DNA of 32,000 nucleotides from Caldivirga maquilingensis IC-167 (lineage in GTDB: Archaea; Thermoproteota; Thermoprotei; Thermoproteales; Thermocladiaceae). The DNA lies in assembly GCF_000018305.1 (NCBI RefSeq), contig NC_009954.1:330001-362000 (forward strand), in the 5' to 3' direction. Shown here in pieces: positions 2,791 to 32,000 of this stretch; position 1 is the stretch's first letter, and each line of letters opens with the position of its first letter. Position numbers and translations under genes: made by a program. Under the pieces are notes generated by a model, which saw nothing but the letters and a program-made list of their open reading frames with translations, was not told the origin of the DNA and searched no databases.

Positions 2791-3870
2791 TTAAGGCTTC
2801 CTTGGCGCGGTAATTGGGTTAATGGTTACTTTAACTTTCTTATTATAGTTCATGGTTTCTATATTGGCATTTAGGAATAGTTTAACAATACTTATATTCG
2901 TTGATAGGTGTGATGTTAAGTTTACCACAGTGTACTCTGATCTGCCTTCAGCTAGGGCTAGGAATGGGATAAGCATATCACCCATGTGGTCATCGAAGGC
3001 CGCCCCCGCATTAATTACTGCCGCAAGGGCCTCTGCAGCCTCCCTACCAACATCCTCCGCTGGTTTACCGCGTTCACCCAGTGAGTCAGCTCCAATCCTC
3101 TGCCCATTAGTGGACTCAGCCCATAGTGTTATTCCTGAACCAGGCCCTAGGTGGGGATCCTTACCCTGCTCATAGTACTCGAGGCTAATGCTGGGTTTTA
3201 GGCCTAGTTTACTTAAATAATCCTCAGCGGCCTTAGCCTGCCTAACCGCTACATGGCTTGGTAACCTAACTGCATGTGATAACCCCCAGATCCCTTTTAA
3301 TTCACCAAGCTCAGTTATGTTGATTGGCTTAAGTCTACCAGCTGGCTTAACGGTAACCTTAACCTTACCGCCACCCCTTGGGTAATGACCCCTCCTAATT
3401 AATTCCACTTTAATCCCCACACCCATTAGGGATAGGTTGTGAGCCAGTACGAAGCGTACGTAATCTATGGGAGGGGCCTTAGGTACATCTGTACCACCGG
3501 TGATGTCAAGGGTGACTTCACCACAGTTCACTACGGCTAATACTGGTAGTAGGGTTTGGAGCACTAGGCTTATGCTCCCTGCAGTTCCAATATCAATACT
3601 GTAGTCACCGCATTTAACATCCCCTGGTTCGAAGGTTAGGCTTAAGGACCCCTTATATGCTCCATCAACCTTAGCGTTACTGATCCTTGCAGCAGCCATG
3701 ACACTGGCCAGGTGCTGGGGCTGCAACCCTGGATTACTTCTCCTAGCCCTAATGTTAATTATCCTGAAGGGTTTACCAGTGATTATGGATAGGGCTAAGG
3801 CAGTCCTCAGTATCTGTCCGCCTCCCTCACCCATTGAGCCGTCTATGGTTATCATGCCCATAATACCCAC
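2791..3870 (-). CDS. rtcA: RNA 3'-terminal phosphate cyclase
   Basis: The N-terminus MITIDGSMGEGGGQILRTALALSIITGKPFRIINIRARRSNPGLQPQHL is near-identical in pattern to E. coli RtcA (DGAQGEGGGQILRSALSLS...GL..QHL). A C-terminal DDHMGDMLIPF carries the catalytic-type His. The true start may be the third in-frame ATG at 3855. Confidence 0.9.
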   Translation of the reverse strand: MGIMGMITIDGSMGEGGGQILRTALALSIITGKPFRIINIRARRSNPGLQPQHLASVMAAARISNAKVDGAYKGSLSLTFEPGDVKCGDYSIDIGTAGSISLVLQTLLPVLAVVNCGEVTLDITGGTDVPKAPPIDYVRFVLAHNLSLMGVGIKVELIRRGHYPRGGGKVKVTVKPAGRLKPINITELGELKGIWGLSHAVRLPSHVAVRQAKAAEDYLSKLGLKPSISLEYYEQGKDPHLGPGSGITLWAESTNGQRIGADSLGERGKPAEDVGREAAEALAAVINAGAAFDDHMGDMLIPFLALAEGRSEYTVVNLTSHLSTNISIVKLFLNANIETMNYNKKVKVTINPITAPRKP

Positions 3871-9159: not shown

Positions 9160-9777
9160 ATGTGTATTTTCGTTGACGTTGAGGGTATTGATGGGGTTGG
9201 TAAATCCACTGTAATTAGGCTTACCGCTGATGAATTAAGGAGGAGGGGTTACTTGGTTTATACCACAAGTGAACCAAGTGACTCACCCATTGGCTTATTC
9301 ATAAGGAGGAGTATACTTGAAAGTAACCTTGAGGTGGAGCCAATGGCCTTAGCGCTCCTATTTGCCGCAGATAGGGTGATTCACTATAATAGGGTTATTA
9401 AACCTAAGGTTAAGGAGGGTTACATAGTGATCACTGAGAGGTATATTGAATCCTCCGTGGCGTATCAAGGTTCCCAAGGCGTACCCGTTGAGTGGATAAT
9501 TGAAGTTAACTCAATGGTGGCTGAACCAGACCTAGTTATAGTGCTTAATGCACCATTAAACACCGTGGCGAGTAGGTTAAGCAATAGGGGAATGCTTGAG
9601 TACTTTGAGAGGAATACTGACTTCCTTAGGAGCGTCCAGGAGGTTTACCTTAGGAGGGCTAGGGAGCGTAATTACCCTGTTATTGATGCGTCAAGGGTGA
9701 TTAATAATGTTGTTAATGACGTACTTACGCTTATTGAGGATAAGGCCAAGGGTAAGTGCAAGAACTATAATCAATAA
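9160..9777 (+). CDS. tmk: Thymidylate kinase (dTMP kinase)
   Basis: FVDVEGIDGVGKST P-loop, TSEPSDSPIG, ALLFAADR and a LID-like region. I place the start at ATG 9160. The track's TTG at 9112 adds 16 non-conserved residues. Confidence 0.85.
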   Translation: MCIFVDVEGIDGVGKSTVIRLTADELRRRGYLVYTTSEPSDSPIGLFIRRSILESNLEVEPMALALLFAADRVIHYNRVIKPKVKEGYIVITERYIESSVAYQGSQGVPVEWIIEVNSMVAEPDLVIVLNAPLNTVASRLSNRGMLEYFERNTDFLRSVQEVYLRRARERNYPVIDASRVINNVVNDVLTLIEDKAKGKCKNYNQ

Positions 9778-11883
9778 CCCGTAGGTACCCTTACTTATCC
9801 CCCTCATTGAACCACCCTTACCATTATCCGTATTAATAATAGTGATGTTGGATAACACTGAGGAAATATACCTCATGTTCAGTACTATGGGTAAATTCAC
9901 CTCACTAGTCTGCTCAACCACTATATCAACCACATACGGTGATGAAGAATTAATGATCAAGCTACTTAAGTATTGATCATAAGTACCCTTGGCAATACCA
10001 TAGTATGCTTCATAGGTGTTTAATTCATTAACCAGGTTAGCCCTCTGATACTCAATACTTTGATTAATGGCTAGGCTGAAGAGTAGGTATTGGCCCGTTA
10101 AGTTAAAGTACATGCTCATTAACCTAGCTGATGCATTCTGAAGCTGGGAACTAGTTTGAATTAGACCACTGGTAATGTTAGTTAAGTTACCGTACAGTGA
10201 TGTGGGTACCGCTAACGCTAAGTTAAGCCTACCTAACGTTACGTTAAGCGTACTCGTCGTTGAGTTAAGTGTATTACTCAGGTAATTGAGGGCTATGTAA
10301 AGTGAGTATACGCTTTGATTAGTCTTAACAAGTGTATTGCTTATGTTGGTTAAGGCAATTACTAATGCAGTACCCCTGGTGTTTAATTGATACGCTAACT
10401 CGCTTAATTGCCTACTAGCCGTTAAAACACCCATCTCGGCACCATTAACATAACCCTCAAGTCTAAGCACCGTAGCCCTCATCACCTCCACATCCTTAAT
10501 TAACCTACTTAATTCACCAAGTATACTGGATTTAACTCCACCATTAATGTTAAGTGAATTAACATCATTATACAGTTTAGTTAAATTATCTTGAACATAA
10601 CCCAAGTATTGGTAGTATTCGGCTAGCGTAGTGTTAGTAGCGTTTAATATTGGTATTATCTCCATTAACGTAACGTTGTACTGCTCAATCTCCCCATAAG
10701 CATACACCACATCTGAAATAACCTGGTATTGAAGATTAATTATCTCATTATTCAACTGCGTTAAATTACTCATTATTTGCTTAAGGGAGTAGGACACCAT
10801 TGGGATAGTGGAGTTAAGCTTACTTAAAACACCGTACTCAGCCCTCAGGGCGTAATCAACCTCATATACCTGAAGCAGTAGTAGACTCTCAATAACCCTG
10901 GTGGAATTCATGTAGTACGCTGACTGCCTATACAAGGCAGCTGTGGTGTTTAGTAAGTAAGATAACTGGTATAAGTCGTTTAAGAGTATCGTGGCGTTAC
11001 TGCTTATAGGCCTTACGTAGGGAATATTATTGAATTCCGTAAGCGTGTTGTTTAATTGACCTATGGTTAACTTAAGGTAATTCAAGTAGTAGTATAAGTC
11101 TATTGATGATGTGAATATTAATGAACCCAAGTCTATTGCACTCCAATTACCTGAATTAGCCACAATGAATGTTACGTTTAAGTCAACGGAACCATTATTA
11201 GGTAATTCACCGGACCAGTACATGTAATTCCCAGTACCAATACCAGCAACACCAGTGGGTGGCGTGGAGTAGTAGTAATTAATACCATTCTGAAGCGGTA
11301 TATATGCATTATAGGTTAGTGGTAGGCCTAGTGCATTTGATGCATTAACAAGCATTATTAATTTAACACCTGAACTACCGTTTATCACTTGACTGGGGGT
11401 TGTTGAGTCATTAATGAGGTACTTAAAGTTCATTATATAATTATTCACTAATGGGTTCTGGAACTCAACGTTAAGCGACATAGTCTCAAAGGAATTAATC
11501 GTAATGTTCCAGTAAATCTCATCACCCTTCAATACATATCCACTTGAGGCATATAGTATGGATGAGTAGGGTGGTAGTCTGAAACCCACGATAACGTTTA
11601 ATGCCGTTGAGTTTTCATTAATCAGGTTAACACCATAATTAATGTAGGATTTAACACCACTACTAGTGTAGTAGTTAATGTAATTAACAGTGTATGTTAC
11701 TGATAATGATGCATCGGCCTCAACAACATGGGTAACGTAAGGCAGCATGATTATTAATAAGGCGGCGATTAACCACGACTTCCCCCCAAGTAGGGGTAGG
11801 TTAATTAATAGGGAATTAATGCCTCTGATTCTCAATAACCTCCTCAAGTCGTGAAATCTCCTCCTCAATTCTACCAACATCAT
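9691..11883 (-). CDS. Large surface glycoprotein candidate: basic N-terminus plus hydrophobic signal/anchor, beta-rich head, long helical NxS/T-rich stalk, C-terminal TM helix
   Basis: The hydrophobic segment SWLIAALLIIMLPYVTHVVEA is followed by a Tyr/Asn/Ser/Val-rich region of about 230 aa. Next comes a Leu/Asn/Ser/Thr-rich region of about 400 aa with helical periodicity. The C-terminus is GTYGLLIIVLALTLGLILNKRK. My manual count gives about 29 N-x-S/T sequons. The start codon is uncertain (11883 or an internal TTG), because the 5' end overlaps the upstream ABC gene by up to 68 nt. Confidence 0.6.
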   Translation of the reverse strand: MMLVELRRRFHDLRRLLRIRGINSLLINLPLLGGKSWLIAALLIIMLPYVTHVVEADASLSVTYTVNYINYYTSSGVKSYINYGVNLINENSTALNVIVGFRLPPYSSILYASSGYVLKGDEIYWNITINSFETMSLNVEFQNPLVNNYIMNFKYLINDSTTPSQVINGSSGVKLIMLVNASNALGLPLTYNAYIPLQNGINYYYSTPPTGVAGIGTGNYMYWSGELPNNGSVDLNVTFIVANSGNWSAIDLGSLIFTSSIDLYYYLNYLKLTIGQLNNTLTEFNNIPYVRPISSNATILLNDLYQLSYLLNTTAALYRQSAYYMNSTRVIESLLLLQVYEVDYALRAEYGVLSKLNSTIPMVSYSLKQIMSNLTQLNNEIINLQYQVISDVVYAYGEIEQYNVTLMEIIPILNATNTTLAEYYQYLGYVQDNLTKLYNDVNSLNINGGVKSSILGELSRLIKDVEVMRATVLRLEGYVNGAEMGVLTASRQLSELAYQLNTRGTALVIALTNISNTLVKTNQSVYSLYIALNYLSNTLNSTTSTLNVTLGRLNLALAVPTSLYGNLTNITSGLIQTSSQLQNASARLMSMYFNLTGQYLLFSLAINQSIEYQRANLVNELNTYEAYYGIAKGTYDQYLSSLIINSSSPYVVDIVVEQTSEVNLPIVLNMRYISSVLSNITIINTDNGKGGSMRGISKGTYGLLIIVLALTLGLILNKRKYVINNIINHP

Positions 11884-17702: not shown

Positions 17703-19514
17703 TTAATCACCAACAGTTATTACGAAATCCCCATTATCATTATTCTTCCCACCGCTAACCAGCTTCGCTAATAATGCGGCAATGATTATGATTACGATTA
17801 TAAGTAGTATTGCGGCTAAGTAACTCCAGTTAATGTAATATAGTACGTTAACTGACGCAGAATTACCCACTATTGGCACTGTATAGGAGCCAATTGCCGC
17901 GTGTACTGTAACGTAGTTGACGCCAATTGGGACGCATATGGTGGCTGAGCCATTAATATTGAAGCTTAAACCACCTGCATCAACAACAGCACTTATTGGT
18001 GAGCCTAAGAGCCCAGTCACCTTAACATTAATCACCCTCACCGGTATGCTCACGTTTATTTCACTTGAATTAACCTTAATCATTGATGAACCTACTATAG
18101 AACCATTAATCACTGCGTTAATGAGTATACTGGACCCATATTTAACGTTACTTAAGGTAAACTTAAACACATTATCATTACTACTGATTAAATGCGCGGA
18201 TGAATTCATAGTAAGCATTACATTGCTGCATGAGGGGGGTAATTGAGTTAAAGTAGTGCTTAAGTTAACTACGTGAAATAACGGAACCTTGACTATGGTT
18301 GATGATTGGTTTATATTAACCACAAGCCTATAATAACCTGAATCACTCATGATAACCATGGAATAGAGACCTGGGACTAGGCAGGTATTGTTTCTTAAAA
18401 CACTGTATGCTCCATGGCCTAGGAGTAGTATTGTTGCGTTTAAAGGATATCCATCAAGTGTCTCAACACTAATTGAACTCCCAGTTATAATATTGTTTAA
18501 GGTAACTGTAGCCTTATTGTTGGCTAACCCAAGCACAATAAGGTTAACCACGGGTTCATTACCTACATAAAGCGTTTCATTGGATGGAACCGTTACTATT
18601 ACGTTACCTCCACTGACCTGGGTTGGTATTAGGAGGTTACTGCACCATGGGTTCAAGGACACTGAGGCCGTGGATTCAATCCAATTAACTGATCCACTTA
18701 ACTTAACTAATTCCTGCCCAGGAATGAATATGGGTATGGTTGCGTTTAGCCTCATTAAGGATCCAGTCAAGCTAACGGTGTAGTAGGCTGTGTCATTGCT
18801 TAATAGGGCTAAGCCACTCCAGGGAATGCTTGAAGTAGCTGGTATTGAGTATGTTGTGTTAACTGAGTAGTATACTGTGGCGTTATTAACCCTGAAGGTT
18901 GGGTTAAGGGTGTAAGATATGTAAACGTACTTATTCATCACTATGGGTATACCATTAGTATTAATAGTGTAGGTGCTTTTATTAACCAGGAACGTGAATG
19001 GTGAAGCCGGCTTCACTGATCCCCCAATGACCACTAACCCAATAATAGTATATAGGGGGGTTAACCCAAGGCTAACAGTATTATTAATCGTAAGGACACC
19101 GGATCCACTATAGCTACCGGTGATCACTGGACCATTGTAGAGGTAAAGCACTGGGGGTATTTTCATGTAACTGGAGACAAACACTATTACCCCGTATGTG
19201 CTCCTGCAGTTAACCCAAGTACTCATGTACTTAGGGGTGTTTAAACCAGTTACTGGGGTTATTGATCCATTGCTCAGAACCAGTGATGCTGAGGCTAAGC
19301 CTAACTGAGACCTTGGGTCTATTACAAGGGTTAAATTAACTAAGCCATTGCAATTCAACGGTATTATTGATGAACCATTAATAGGCAGCATCACTGGTAT
19401 TGAGGAACCATTAATGTAGATTAAACCATAATTAACAATGTAGTTAGGTACGGCTGCCAACACAGGCATCATGGCTATGAATGCCGTTAAGAATGCGATA
19501 AGCCTCCTCATCAC
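17703..19514 (-). CDS. Large secreted, C-terminally membrane-anchored glycoprotein candidate (603 aa)
   Basis: Signal peptide MMRRLIAFLTAFIAMMPVLAAV. The body is beta-rich with Val/Ser/Asn/Thr/Ile composition and about 21 N-x-S/T sequons by manual count. The C-terminal TM segment is LAAILLIIVIIIIAALLAKLV, followed by a short tail. Confidence 0.6.
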   Translation of the reverse strand: MMRRLIAFLTAFIAMMPVLAAVPNYIVNYGLIYINGSSIPVMLPINGSSIIPLNCNGLVNLTLVIDPRSQLGLASASLVLSNGSITPVTGLNTPKYMSTWVNCRSTYGVIVFVSSYMKIPPVLYLYNGPVITGSYSGSGVLTINNTVSLGLTPLYTIIGLVVIGGSVKPASPFTFLVNKSTYTINTNGIPIVMNKYVYISYTLNPTFRVNNATVYYSVNTTYSIPATSSIPWSGLALLSNDTAYYTVSLTGSLMRLNATIPIFIPGQELVKLSGSVNWIESTASVSLNPWCSNLLIPTQVSGGNVIVTVPSNETLYVGNEPVVNLIVLGLANNKATVTLNNIITGSSISVETLDGYPLNATILLLGHGAYSVLRNNTCLVPGLYSMVIMSDSGYYRLVVNINQSSTIVKVPLFHVVNLSTTLTQLPPSCSNVMLTMNSSAHLISSNDNVFKFTLSNVKYGSSILINAVINGSIVGSSMIKVNSSEINVSIPVRVINVKVTGLLGSPISAVVDAGGLSFNINGSATICVPIGVNYVTVHAAIGSYTVPIVGNSASVNVLYYINWSYLAAILLIIVIIIIAALLAKLVSGGKNNDNGDFVITVGD

Positions 19515-28425: not shown

Positions 28426-28737
28426 ATGATAGATATATCAAGGGAACTGCAAGTTGTAGCTAATACAGGTAGGTTGACGATGGGTGTTAGGCAATCAATA
28501 AAGGCTATACTTAATGGTGACGCTAAGTTAGTTATAATGGCCGCTAACGTACCGCCAAGCATCAGGCAGGATGTTGAAAGATACGCTAAGTTATCTCAAG
28601 TACCAGTATTCACCTACGCTGGGACAAGCTGGGAACTGGGAGGCGCATTAAGGAGGAGTCATAAAATAGCAGTTGTGGCTATTATTGATCCAGGTGAGAG
28701 TAGTATAATGTCCCTTGCCGGTGGTGCCAATGTCTAA
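28426..28737 (+). CDS. rpl30e: Ribosomal protein eL30 (L30e)
   Basis: [30 protein letters not shown]...[34 protein letters not shown] is an L7Ae/L30e-fold pattern. The position upstream of NusA-S12 is the conserved archaeal arrangement. Confidence 0.88.
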
Positions 28738-29176
28738 GAGTAGGGGTCGAATCATACTAACTGATGATGAGTTAAGGTACGCGGCGCTCTTCGAAAGCGT
28801 CACTGGGATAACGCCTAGGGATGCAATATATGATCCTGAATTCAATAGGATAATATTCATTGTTGATAAGAATTTCGCACCATTAGCCGTTGGTAAGGGA
28901 GGTATAAATGTTAAGAAGCTTAAGAATCTACTCGGTAAGGATGTTGAAATAGTTGAGTACGGTGATGACCCCGAGGAATTACTAAGGAATGCACTCTACC
29001 CAGCTAAGGTGGTGAACATAACCATTAATAAGCTTCCCAATAATGGTAAAGTAGCCATAATTAGAGTTGAGGAGGGGGAGAAGGGTATAGCATTAGGTAA
29101 GTACCATAGGAACCTTAAAAGAGCAGCCCTACTGGCTAAGAGATACTTCGACATTGATAACGTTAAGATACCATAA
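28715..29176 (+). CDS. nusA: Archaeal NusA-like transcription termination/antitermination factor (two KH domains)
   Basis: [21 protein letters not shown]...[25 protein letters not shown]...[22 protein letters not shown] contains two GxxG KH motifs. It overlaps the eL30 3' end. The start may instead be the ATG at 28730. Confidence 0.85.
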
Positions 29177-29207: not shown

Positions 29208-31193
29208 GTGAGTGGTAAAAAGAGCCCATTAGGACTATATGCCGCTAGGAAGCTTAGAAGAAAGAGACAGAAATTCAGGTGGAGTGATATTCAGTATAAG
29301 AAGAGAGCGTTAGGCTTTATTAAGAAGTATGACCCACTGGAAGGAGCCCCAATGGCAAGAGGAATAGTACTGGAGAAGGTAGGCGTAGAGGCAAGAAAAC
29401 CCAACGCAGCAGTGAGGAAGTGCGTAACCCCAGATACATTAATTAATTTAACACCCAGGGTAGCAACTAGGATAATTAACCTCGCGGGTAATTGGCATGA
29501 AGTTTCAATAATCCACTTCAATAAGGGTTCTAAGGTAATTGAACCAACTAGGCTCATTGACTTCTTCCACATAGAGCCCGAGGAGTTTAGAGAGGATGGT
29601 GTGTATGAGTTGAGGACACTCTACGGTAGGAGAATAATAGCGAGTGGTGATCACCCAATATACACTGGGAGAGGCATATTACCCCTTAAGGAGGTTAAGC
29701 CAGGTGATTACGTAGCCGTATACCCAAGGGAGCCCATTGAGGCTTACACGCTTAATGATGATAGAGTAATACTAACTGAGGATGACATAAGAAGGGAGGC
29801 TCCACCAAACGCCAAGGTTGATCAAATTATTAATAGGCTTAAGGAGTTAGGACTGATACCACTTAAGTATAGTAATAGTAATATTTATAGGATTGCACGA
29901 TTAGTCGGCCATCTATTTGGGGATGGGTCACTAAGCTACGTTAAGAGTGGCAATGGTTATGAGGGTAAAGTGGCATTCAGTGGAAATCCCAGTGACCTTG
30001 AGGACATTATAAATGATTTAATTGAATTAGGATTTAAACCATCAAAGATTAGGGAGTACCACGGCGAAAGCATTGTTACCTGGAGTAATGGATTAATGAA
30101 TGTAATTAGCGGTAAGTCAAATGTTGCCTTCGTCACCTCAATAACGTTATTCACGCTACTTAAGGCATTGGGGATTCCCGTTGGTGATAAGGCACTGCAG
30201 GCATATAGAGTGCCTGAGTGGGTAATGGAGGCTCCATTGGACGTTAAGGCGGAGTTTTTAGCCGCGTACTTCGGTAGTGAGTTAGAGAGACCGCGGGTTG
30301 AGAATAACGGTAGAACATTCCAACCACCAACACTGGTAATACACAAGGCTGAGAACCTGGCTGGGAATGGTATTGAATTCCTAAACGATATTAGGAAACT
30401 ACTTAGTGAATTCGGTATAGAGACAACACCCGTGAGCGTTAGCAGTGGCGTCATTAGGAAGAATGGCATTAGGACCGTTAGGTTGAGGTTTTCAATAATT
30501 AGTAACACTAATAACTTACTAAGGTTCTTTGGAAGGATAGGCTATGCGTACAATAAGGAACATGACTCACTGGCGGTATTAGCGTATGAGTATCTACGTA
30601 GAAAGGTTTTGCTTTGGCAGCATTACGCTGATGCTTATGAATTAACGAGGAAATTAATGAGCGAAGGCTACGACGGACCCAGTATAGTTAAGGCCCTTAG
30701 GAGCGCCGGGTATAGGGTTAGTAGGGCCACGGTGTATAAGTGGTTAAAGGGTGTTAAGAATACTAAGTACATAGGTAGAACAGCCAGAATACCATCATTC
30801 AGTGATTGGATTATTAAGGCCACACTAGGGCTGGGGAACTCGGGGCTGGTTTGGGATGTGGTCACTGAAGTTAAGCCCATTGAGTGGAATGATAGGCTTT
30901 GGGATGTGACCACTGAAAGCTCATACCATAACTTCATTGCAAACGGCCTGGTAACCGGCAACTGTGTCAGGGTCCAGCTTACGAAGAATGGGAAGGTGGT
31001 TACGGCATTCGTGCCGTGGGATGGTGGTTTAAACCTCATTAATGAGCATGATGAGGTGATCATAGAGAGGATCGGTGGCCCAGAGGGTAGGGCTTACGGT
31101 GACCTACCTGGCGTGAGGTTTAAGGTAACTAAAGTTAATGGAGTCAGTCTTAAAGCCATACTACTGGGTAAGAAACAGAAACCAGTTAGATAA
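29208..31193 (+). CDS. rps12: Ribosomal protein uS12 precursor containing a 514-aa intein (exteins of 71 aa and 76 aa give a 147-aa S12)
   Basis: The N-extein ends ...[17 protein letters not shown]. The C-extein is [63 protein letters not shown].... Joined, they give the canonical archaeal S12 sequence. GTG start. Confidence 0.9.
29421..30962 (+). mobile_element. Intein with LAGLIDADG homing-endonuclease domain inserted in uS12
   Basis: Starts with CVTPDTLI (block A) and has SGDHPIY (block B, nt 29643-29663). The two LAGLIDADG motifs are [11 protein letters not shown] (29901-29933) and [11 protein letters not shown] (30255-30287). An HTH-like [11 protein letters not shown] is present. The intein ends [22 protein letters not shown] (blocks F/G), followed by Cys+1 at 30963. 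Confidence 0.87.
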
Positions 31194-31809
31194 TTAGCCA
31201 TTAACTTAAGTTACATTATTAATTCACTTAATTTAATAATAATAAGTATAAATGCGGTTTGCAAATGCCTAATTTCCCAGCAGTTAATGGTAGTATCACC
31301 TACCCTACTAGTCATTCGTGATCCTATGTTGAACACTATGTATGAATCCTATGAATTGATGGATAACAAATTCATGAAACCCAATGATAACTTCGTTCAT
31401 GTGCCACAACAAACTCCTAGGATCAATGCAAGGATTAGGCGATCGTTGAGCGGGAACTACGTGGGTTTAGAAGAGGTAGCTTGATCCGCCTAGTTACTCC
31501 ATGGATAAGTTATTCATGGATTACTTGGCCGGCGCATCATAAGCCTCTACACTATTGCCGTTAAAGGTGAGGTGCCACAACATAAGGGCACTGTATGAGC
31601 CAGGGATAAAGAGTATGATCAGCCTCAACATTAGGAGGTAGATTTAAGAAAAATAGGTAAATTACGCCTTAACTTACCCTAGCACACTTAACCTAATATT
31701 ACCCAACGTAAAAATTCAACCTCACTGATACAGTACCATAAAGCCTAGCGAATCCAGTGGGTAAGATGTATGGTAGGAGATTAAGTGAGTTAATAAGGCT
31801 CAGAGTACT

Positions 31810-31829
31810 AGTTGATTAATAAATCAACT
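31810..31829. repeat. Inverted repeat AGTTGAT-N6-ATCAACT (perfect 8+4+8 palindrome agttgatt aata aatcaact)
   Basis: Read directly from the sequence. The arms are the same as in the repeat at 1939-1957. Confidence 0.6.
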
Positions 31830-31915
31830 CAGTAAAAGGCTAGGTGGTGTAAAGGTTTCCGGAATAATTATCTAGCAAATAATTATAAATGAGTGCAATA
31901 TGTGTATCTAGGGTT

Positions 31916-32000
31916 ATGAATCCAATAGATGATTATATAAAGAACGAGGTCAAGGAGTTAATGGGGGAATCCGCATTCACATACCTGGCTAAGGCACGTG
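31916..32000 (+). CDS. 5' end of an unidentified protein-coding gene, truncated by the window edge
   Basis: The frame is open to the window end (MNPIDDYIKNEVKELMGESAFTYLAKAR...). An in-frame upstream ATG is at 31889. A TATA-like aaataattataaa is centred about 30 nt upstream of 31916. Confidence 0.3.
   Translation, partial: MNPIDDYIKNEVKELMGESAFTYLAKAR

Follow-up and report, generated by a model that had tools for sequence, protein, structure and literature searches.

Can a protein that is needed for every small ribosomal subunit carry an intein in its reading frame, and is such an element still able to splice and to move? The question is raised by the rps12 gene of the archaeon Caldivirga maquilingensis IC-167, which encodes ribosomal protein uS12 and lies near the end of the 32,000-nucleotide stretch of DNA that we analysed (assembly GCF_000018305.1, contig NC_009954.1, forward-strand positions 330,001 to 362,000; hereafter the window, in whose numbering all positions are given). 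A first-pass annotation, made from the sequence without database searches, had proposed that the gene is split by an intein with a homing endonuclease. We conclude with high confidence that the insert in rps12 is a genuine intein of class 1 in which a LAGLIDADG homing endonuclease is nested, and that this is the only detectable rps12 of C. maquilingensis. The intein is probably splicing-competent and probably also still mobile.

The rps12 precursor is encoded by an open reading frame (ORF) at 29208-31193 on the + strand, which has 661 uninterrupted codons, a GTG start, and a stop codon at 31191-31193. The translation is 100% identical to the NCBI entry 'intein-containing 30S ribosomal protein S12 [Caldivirga maquilingensis]'. 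The precursor can be divided into the N-extein, the intein, and the C-extein, all read from the + strand. The N-extein (29208-29420) comprises uS12 residues 1-71, including the PNAA (PNSA-type) decoding loop. The intein (29421-30962) has 514 residues, starts with Cys1, which is ORF residue 72 and begins at nucleotide 29421, and ends with an Asn at residue 585, the codon of which extends through nucleotide 30962; these boundaries are identical in 86 homologues. The C-extein (30963-31190) begins with Cys+1 and provides residues 72-147 of mature uS12. The masses calculated for the precursor, the intein, and the spliced uS12 are 74, 57.9, and 16.4 kDa, respectively. The first-pass annotation had placed a 514-residue insert at 29421-30962 of a 661-residue uS12 ORF, which is exact to the base, and its size of about 58 kDa for the free intein agrees with the calculated mass.

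Is the interrupted protein an ordinary uS12 once the insert is removed? The Pfam family Ribosom_S12_S23 matches the precursor as two stretches (E 5.5e-36), the first in the N-extein and the second at residues 585-660, and the archaeal uS12 equivalog of NCBIfam (TIGR00982 / NF003254) matches it with 231 bits, also as two stretches. The 147-residue product of in-silico splicing, in which residues 1-71 are joined to residues 586-661, is matched as one stretch over positions 2-146 of 146 with 250.2 bits (cut-off 196), and the second archaeal uS12 model of the pair gives 235.8 bits against a cut-off of 140.2. The spliced product aligns over residues 1-147 to uS12 from the solved ribosome of Pyrobaculum calidifontis (PDB 9e71_BN; E 3.8e-77), with the N-extein covering residues 1-71 of that chain. 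Residues G59 to L77 of the two proteins are identical, and this segment spans the junction AAVRK|CVRVQL. The seamless joining of the exteins, claimed in the first-pass annotation together with the proposal to align them against intein-free uS12, is thereby confirmed, as the exteins are contiguous in such an alignment. Matches of this strength far exceed what chance would give.

In mature uS12 the junction separates Lys71 from Cys72 and lies three residues past the PNSA-type decoding loop. The +1 cysteine is a native residue of uS12 that was not brought by the intein, as all 120 of the most similar intein-free uS12 proteins have it. The equivalent of the junction in Escherichia coli S12 is K51|V52 in Met1 numbering, with PNSA at residues 45-48. 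The PNSA loop and the neighbouring lysine of streptomycin resistance (K42/K43) face the decoding centre. The K|CVRVQ site is common to archaeal uS12 and is also found in eukaryotic uS12. The intein site is fairly described as adjoining the decoding loop, where it had been placed originally.

The next question is whether the insert has the residues and the fold that splicing requires. The Pfam family Intein_splicing matches it with 42-43 bits (42.3 bits against a gathering cut-off of 35.8). The intein part of the NCBIfam model 'intein-containing RtcB family protein' (RtcB_rel_intein) gives a partial match to ORF residues 72-588 with 304 bits. The N-terminal lobe of the Hint domain (residues 72-175; 29421-29732, + strand), which contains block A with Cys72 and block B with Ser146-Gly-Asp-His149 (nucleotides 29634-29663), is matched by intein_Nterm TIGR01445 over residues 72-153. 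The C-terminal lobe (residues 546-585; 30843-30962, + strand), which contains block F with Asp566 and His574-Asn-Phe and block G with LVTGN585, is matched by intein_Cterm TIGR01443 with 19.1 bits (cut-off 15.6).

Conservation was evaluated in a set of 86-88 homologous sequences, reaching down to approximately 38% identity. All 86 homologues that cover the position have Cys72, and 86 of 86 also have Asp566, His574, the terminal Asn585, and Cys+1 (C586); the whole HNF motif that starts with His574 is invariant. None of the 88 sequences lacks His149 of block B, and at position 146 there is Ser in 81 and Thr in seven. The conserved residues correspond to the nucleophiles and assisting residues, including the block B motif Thr(B:7)-x-x-His(B:10), defined in the review by Mills, Johnson and Perler (PMC4031507). 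The intein motifs listed in the first-pass annotation (Cys1-VTPDTLI, SGDHPIY, and a terminal block followed by Cys+1) are all in the translation, and the Pfam search that it had recommended for the splicing part exceeds the cut-off.

The structure of the precursor was predicted using AlphaFold2 with 74 aligned homologues. The model has a mean predicted local distance difference test score (pLDDT) of 86 and exceeds 90 over most of the intein, and low confidence is limited to the extein residues adjoining the junction. The N-terminal lobe of Hint is modelled as beta-strands with a pLDDT of approximately 90. A Foldseek comparison matched the Hint fold of the model to DnaB mini-inteins, with root-mean-square deviations of 2.1-2.5 Å over approximately 105-110 columns, as well as to large inteins. 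The extein part of the model was matched to archaeal and eukaryotic uS12.

The Hint domain is split by a linker (residues 176-225; 29733-29882), a LAGLIDADG endonuclease core (residues 226-448; 29883-30551), and a helical insert (residues 449-545; 30552-30842), all on the + strand. The core contains the two LAGLIDADG motifs that had been recognised at first sight, and each of them carries an acidic residue. Motif 1, LVGHLFGD239G (nucleotides 29895-29936, + strand; motif core residues 233-242), provides the putative catalytic Asp239, and motif 2, FLAAYFGSE358L (nucleotides 30249-30293, + strand; motif core residues 350-360), provides the putative catalytic Glu358. Asp239 is kept in 82 of 88 homologues and replaced by Glu in two more, so that the position is acidic in 84; Glu358 is kept in 85 of 88, and the active-site Lys328 in 87 of 88. 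Both acids are retained in 83 of 88 sequences (approximately 94%), and the remaining five alleles lack one or both. In the model, the alpha-beta-beta-alpha-beta-beta-alpha fold of LAGLIDADG enzymes occurs twice, as helix 226-237 followed by strands and as helix 344-358 followed by strands. The best Foldseek matches in the PDB are endonuclease-bearing inteins, with TliVMA (7qss) first at E 5.5e-17, followed by the free LAGLIDADG enzymes I-SceI, I-AniI, I-DmoI, and I-WcaI, and by DnaB mini-inteins. The conserved acids, the model, and the structural matches thus agree on a nested endonuclease.

The helical insert is modelled as a long helix (residues 450-485) followed by helices 490-499 and 506-513, of which the latter two form a helix-turn-helix (HTH)-like pair at residues 490-513. 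Residues I493, L497, G501, and W512 of the insert are nearly invariant. The HTH-like segment of the first-pass annotation is therefore present as a helical pair in the model, but its support from Pfam is sub-threshold (HTH_Tnp_IS630, E 0.014; HTH_23, E 0.062), and we call it HTH-like for this reason. The insert probably adds to DNA binding. The linker contains the nearly invariant residues L211, L216, P218, and L219, and may be a small DNA-recognition element; a winged HTH of the TrmB type gives a weak Pfam match at intein residues 129-159 (E 0.064).

Variants of the intein show which of its parts can be lost. The clearest of the five alleles with lost acids, which comes from a Caldivirga sp. 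metagenome-assembled genome (MAG) (P0007, 596 residues), has Ser in place of Asp239 and Ala in place of Glu358, and its HTH-like module is deleted (aligned positions 465-529); all of its splicing residues are intact. A similar deletion of the HTH-like module (470-503) occurs in another allele (P0081), which also keeps the splicing motifs. The combination of fixed splicing residues with a sporadically decaying endonuclease fits the prediction of the homing cycle for an intein in an essential gene. The C. maquilingensis copy has both acids, and its endonuclease is, judging from the sequence, probably still active.

How is the element distributed, and are there genes from which it is missing? An intein at the same site is found in approximately 86 protein clusters (at 90% identity), which answers the earlier call for a search for further rps12 alleles. 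According to the names of the sources, from which all taxon assignments were taken, the carriers belong to Caldivirga and Vulcanisaeta, to Nitrososphaeria/Thaumarchaeota, and to the DPANN groups Diapherotrites, Woesearchaeota, and Aenigmarchaeota. More than 4,000 S12 clusters matched at E <= 1e-40 are free of the intein. It is present in C. maquilingensis, a Caldivirga MAG, V. souniana, and Vulcanisaeta sp. JCM 16161, and absent from V. distributa (P0192), Vulcanisaeta sp. JCM 16159 (L046), Thermocladium (P0097), and a Logan allele that is 93% identical and keeps the synteny (L081). Both states thus occur within Vulcanisaeta and around Caldivirga. The empty sites are precise and in frame, and continuous in register at the DNA level (L046, L081, and L001-L006). 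No endonuclease-less mini-intein at the S12 site was found among the matches, the shorter entries being genes that were called incompletely or alleles that have lost the HTH module. The history of the element appears to be one of long residence with repeated loss, possibly with re-invasion within lineages.

The S12 intein belongs to a larger family. An exhaustive HMMER search of 1.84 billion representative sequences identified 1,017 relatives at E <= 1e-3, of which 147 reach E <= 1e-30. The hosts of the 49 top matches that do not look like S12 include RtcB (26), RNA polymerase subunit A/Rpb1 (six), Pus10 (four), and eRF1 (two), as well as RNA polymerase B, HerA, MCM, RFC, and others; examples are the inteins of RNA polymerase A' (P0222, P0226), Pus10 (P0225), and RtcB (P0089-P0093). 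The nearest copy outside S12 resides in a radical-SAM protein (P0087) and is 41% identical. Given these hosts, the S12 intein appears as one branch of a large archaeal family of LAGLIDADG inteins that favours RNA and translation machinery.

RtcB inteins of the Pyrococcus type (NCBIfam NF038162) provide the curated model that scores best for the insert, at the 304 bits given above. They share with the S12 intein the Cys1 ... HNF-AN-G ... N|C termini and the order of domains, at 29-37% identity, but their host is different and they are inserted at GYDIN|CGVRLL, compared with AAVRK|CVRVQL in S12. Some of the RtcB inteins have a penultimate His (P0091, VVHN|C), unlike the S12 intein. The intein of RNA polymerase A' (P0222) is 39% identical over the whole S12 intein, and shares its LAGLIDADG motifs and the GN|C ending without a penultimate His. 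It is inserted directly before the NADFDGD active-site loop, and likewise lies beside the catalytic heart of an essential machine, which is RNA polymerase in one case and the ribosome in the other. The RpolA' intein of Methanocaldococcus jannaschii is said to be among those studied for splicing without a penultimate His, by Chen, Benner and Perler in 2000.

The closest known structures are those of the inteins TliVMA (7qss), PI-PfuI (1dq3), PI-TkoII (2cw7), PhoVMA (7qst), and PI-SceI (1lws), with Foldseek E-values from 5.5e-17 to 3.6e-08. These five share with the S12 intein a Hint domain split by a double-motif LAGLIDADG core and extra DNA-binding parts. However, they are only 10-17% identical to it in sequence, their hosts are V-ATPase, ribonucleotide reductase, and DNA polymerase, and they have no demonstrated counterpart of the helical HTH insert 449-545. 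A sequence search of the PDB returned no match at E 0.001, and only the TliVMA intein chain 7qsu_A (E 0.0014) under a relaxed limit of 0.01.

What would happen to the precursor in the cell can be proposed from these data and from standard intein chemistry. The 74-kDa precursor would be translated first. Cys1 (C72) would then attack the carbonyl of Lys71 in an N-S acyl shift aided by Ser146 and His149 of block B, and the N-extein would pass to Cys+1 (C586) by trans-thioesterification. Asn585 would cyclise with the aid of Asp566 and His574 of block F, without a penultimate His, and an S-to-N shift would yield the 16.4-kDa uS12 joined at AAVRK-CVRVQL and the free 57.9-kDa intein. It is most likely that splicing precedes the assembly of the 30S subunit, and that it is constitutive and efficient, because uS12 could hardly be assembled with 58 kDa of extra protein on its subunit-interface side. 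The free intein or the precursor would act as a monomeric double-motif LAGLIDADG enzyme, with Asp239, Glu358, and Lys328 in its active sites and the HTH-like module as an accessory. The enzyme would cut intein-less rps12 at AAG|TGT, and repair from an intein-bearing copy would spread the element. The predicted homing site consists of a left half at 29406-29420 and a right half at 30963-30977 (+ strand), which in an intein-less allele are joined into GCAGCAGTGAGGAAG|TGTGTCAGGGTCCAG; the extent of the sequence recognised is a prediction.

How well does the conclusion that the intein splices and still moves withstand the available data? Several observations weigh against it. Splicing, DNA cleavage, and their timing relative to ribosome assembly are processes that we infer, in the case of splicing from the conserved residues and standard intein chemistry. 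The penultimate residue of the intein is Gly, and across the S12 alleles it is G, S, K, L, or R, never His. A penultimate His (G:6) assists in most inteins, being common but not obligatory (PMC4031507), and splicing without it is documented for some inteins (references 74 and 87 of PMC4031507); its absence could slow the cyclisation of Asn. The Pfam family LAGLIDADG_3, which the first-pass annotation had suggested as a check, does match, but the 18.3-19.1 bits lie under the Pfam cut-off of 22.5, and 11 of the 49 intein-family relatives match it at E <= 1e-5. Purifying selection on the intein speaks for the conclusion: in the comparison with V. souniana, at an amino-acid identity of 81%, the ratio of nonsynonymous to synonymous substitution rates (dN/dS) is 0.08 over the full length of the intein, and the LAGLIDADG core alone gives 0.10. 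The values are rough because dS is near saturation, and the low ratio of the core could result from selection on a splicing-permissive fold and not on nuclease activity. The intein-bearing exteins of Caldivirga and V. souniana show no greater similarity to each other near the junction than intein-free exteins do, extein DNA groups by host genus and not by intein state, and the divergences of intein and extein are correlated (Spearman 0.78). Because of the missing co-conversion tract, the grouping by genus, and the correlated divergence, recent horizontal homing is not demonstrated. A second, unannotated rps12 could lie beyond the best 80 genomic loci. Much of this would be expected if the intein splices while its endonuclease is inactive, so that it is a fixed, vertically inherited passenger with a fold that is kept since damage to it impairs the splicing of an essential protein. 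Correlated divergence, exteins without a co-conversion signal, and the sub-threshold LAGLIDADG_3 score fit such a passenger. So does its fully ameliorated base composition: the guanine and cytosine (GC) content is 0.435 in the intein and 0.432 in the window, which indicates a long-term resident, and the GC content at third codon positions (GC3) also matches that of the host. No relatives of the intein were found in viral contigs, which provides no evidence for a viral vector, and some alleles tolerate the loss of the catalytic acids and of the HTH module. Pure maintenance of the fold, however, does not predict that the acids and the active-site Lys are kept in approximately 94% of sequences from lineages only about 40% identical. 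The loss of the acids in P0007 coincides with a deletion, as expected if selection normally keeps the activity, and a single genus includes both intein-bearing and intein-free genes, at a nucleotide identity of 88% between exteins. We consider an inactive endonuclease possible, but rather unlikely.

Two further explanations concern the host gene. Splicing might be conditional, acting as a post-translational switch or checkpoint that gates 30S production in response to temperature, redox state (through a Cys1-Cys+1 disulfide), or an assembly partner. Both cysteines are present, the missing penultimate His may make the last step rate-limiting or context-dependent, the allele is long-lived in three archaeal superphyla, and there are published precedents for conditional splicing in archaeal inteins, such as that of RadA. 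If this were true, the rate of splicing, which would depend partly on the missing His, would control the amount of mature uS12 that arrives at the decoding centre, and this would explain why Thermoproteota, Nitrososphaeria, and DPANN have all kept one allele, its endonuclease intact. We regard the switch as improbable, since no sequence feature speaks specifically for regulation, close relatives thrive without the intein, and selfish persistence alone explains the pattern of conserved residues. Still harder to credit is that the insertion disabled a dispensable copy of rps12 and that the ribosomes are supplied from another locus. The first-pass annotation had named a second, intact, intein-free rps12 as grounds against its reading, but neither the 120 best S12 proteins of a collection of 5.8 billion nor the best 80 genomic loci include another S12 from Caldivirga; as the genomic check covers these 80 loci, the evidence for a single copy is strong but not absolute. 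Furthermore, the 661 codons are uninterrupted and the splicing residues all intact, the C-extein has a dN/dS of 0.025 and is 91% identical to that of V. souniana, and the gene stands in a conserved L30e-NusA-S12 context. We rejected the pseudogene or second-copy idea as unlikely because of the strong constraint on the exteins and the lack of another Caldivirga S12 among the top matches. A spliced, essential uS12 with an intein that is probably still mobile is the explanation that we retain.

Upstream of rps12 on the + strand are rpl30e (28426-28737; NCBIfam L30e, 114 bits) and the archaeal nusA (28715-29176; nusA_arch, 142 bits). The nusA ORF, with its listed TTG start, overlaps the end of rpl30e by 23 nucleotides (28715-28737); as the NCBIfam model matches from residue 12 onwards, NusA may in fact start further downstream. 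The L30e-NusA-S12 cluster sits downstream of Hel308 and an AMMECR1-like gene, and the same order is found in V. souniana, where the intein is present, and in the Logan contig L081, where it is absent. The approximately 800 base pairs downstream of rps12 (31194-32000) contain no ORF of at least 120 residues, no Rfam match, and no tRNA. The gene rps7, a common follower of rps12, is absent from this segment; in the intein-free L081, rps12 is followed by the gene for L13e, which is read from the opposite strand.

Rfam and tRNA scans of the whole window returned nothing. Two ORFs on the - strand, at 9691-11883 (729 residues) and 17703-19514 (602 residues), match no Pfam family at E <= 1e-5. The window also contains genes for RtcA, the RNA 3'-terminal phosphate cyclase (2791-3870, - strand), and for a PaREP1-family protein (2028-2510, - strand). 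RtcA is usually a partner of RtcB, the main host of the intein family, and no link to the S12 intein is evident.

Is an intein in S12 new? The S12 intein is already labelled in NCBI and JGI annotation, and its bare existence is not new. The first-pass annotation knew of no characterised intein in a core ribosomal protein; this agrees with a full-text search of 7.7 million PMC papers and bioRxiv, in which no paper describing the S12 intein was found and the papers searched reported no ribosomal-protein intein, but NCBI names the S12 intein already. Papers that seemed relevant name inteins only among their references or in other hosts. The survey by Novikova et al. 2016 (PMC4760082) states that core translation components hold few inteins, with those of COG category J in a minority; it places aIF2 and RtcB among the top 15 archaeal intein hosts, and S12 is not among the top hosts given there. 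The translation-related hosts aIF2/eIF5B, RtcB, Pus10, and eRF1 are enzymes or factors, whereas uS12 is a structural core protein that is stoichiometric in each 30S subunit. New here are the breadth of the alleles, the empty sites, the decayed variants, the family-wide missing penultimate His, and the spectrum of hosts of the family.

The annotation of these proteins is inconsistent. JGI gives the name 'tRNA-splicing ligase RtcB' to several of the S12-intein proteins, owing to the similarity of the inteins, and the copy of Vulcanisaeta sp. JCM 16161 is annotated as an N-terminally truncated 'hypothetical protein'; misannotated entries include, for example, P0022, P0041, P0061, P0072, and P0006. 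Since rps12 is a standard phylogenetic marker, 650-residue 'S12' entries mislabelled as RtcB or hypothetical proteins could affect its use.

In itself the S12 intein is a canonical, endonuclease-bearing element; it is the host that is unusual. Inteins cluster in proteins of replication, repair, and nucleotide metabolism, and this one interrupts a structural ribosomal protein three residues from the decoding loop. It adds uS12 to RtcB, RNA polymerase, Pus10, and eRF1 as hosts of its family, and offers a clear example of a homing endonuclease directed at a coding sequence that is among the most conserved known. Because uS12 is needed for every 30S subunit, the supply of ribosomes in these archaea presumably depends on protein splicing, which makes rps12 a natural system for studying the speed and fidelity of splicing that an intein needs in a protein expressed at a very high level.

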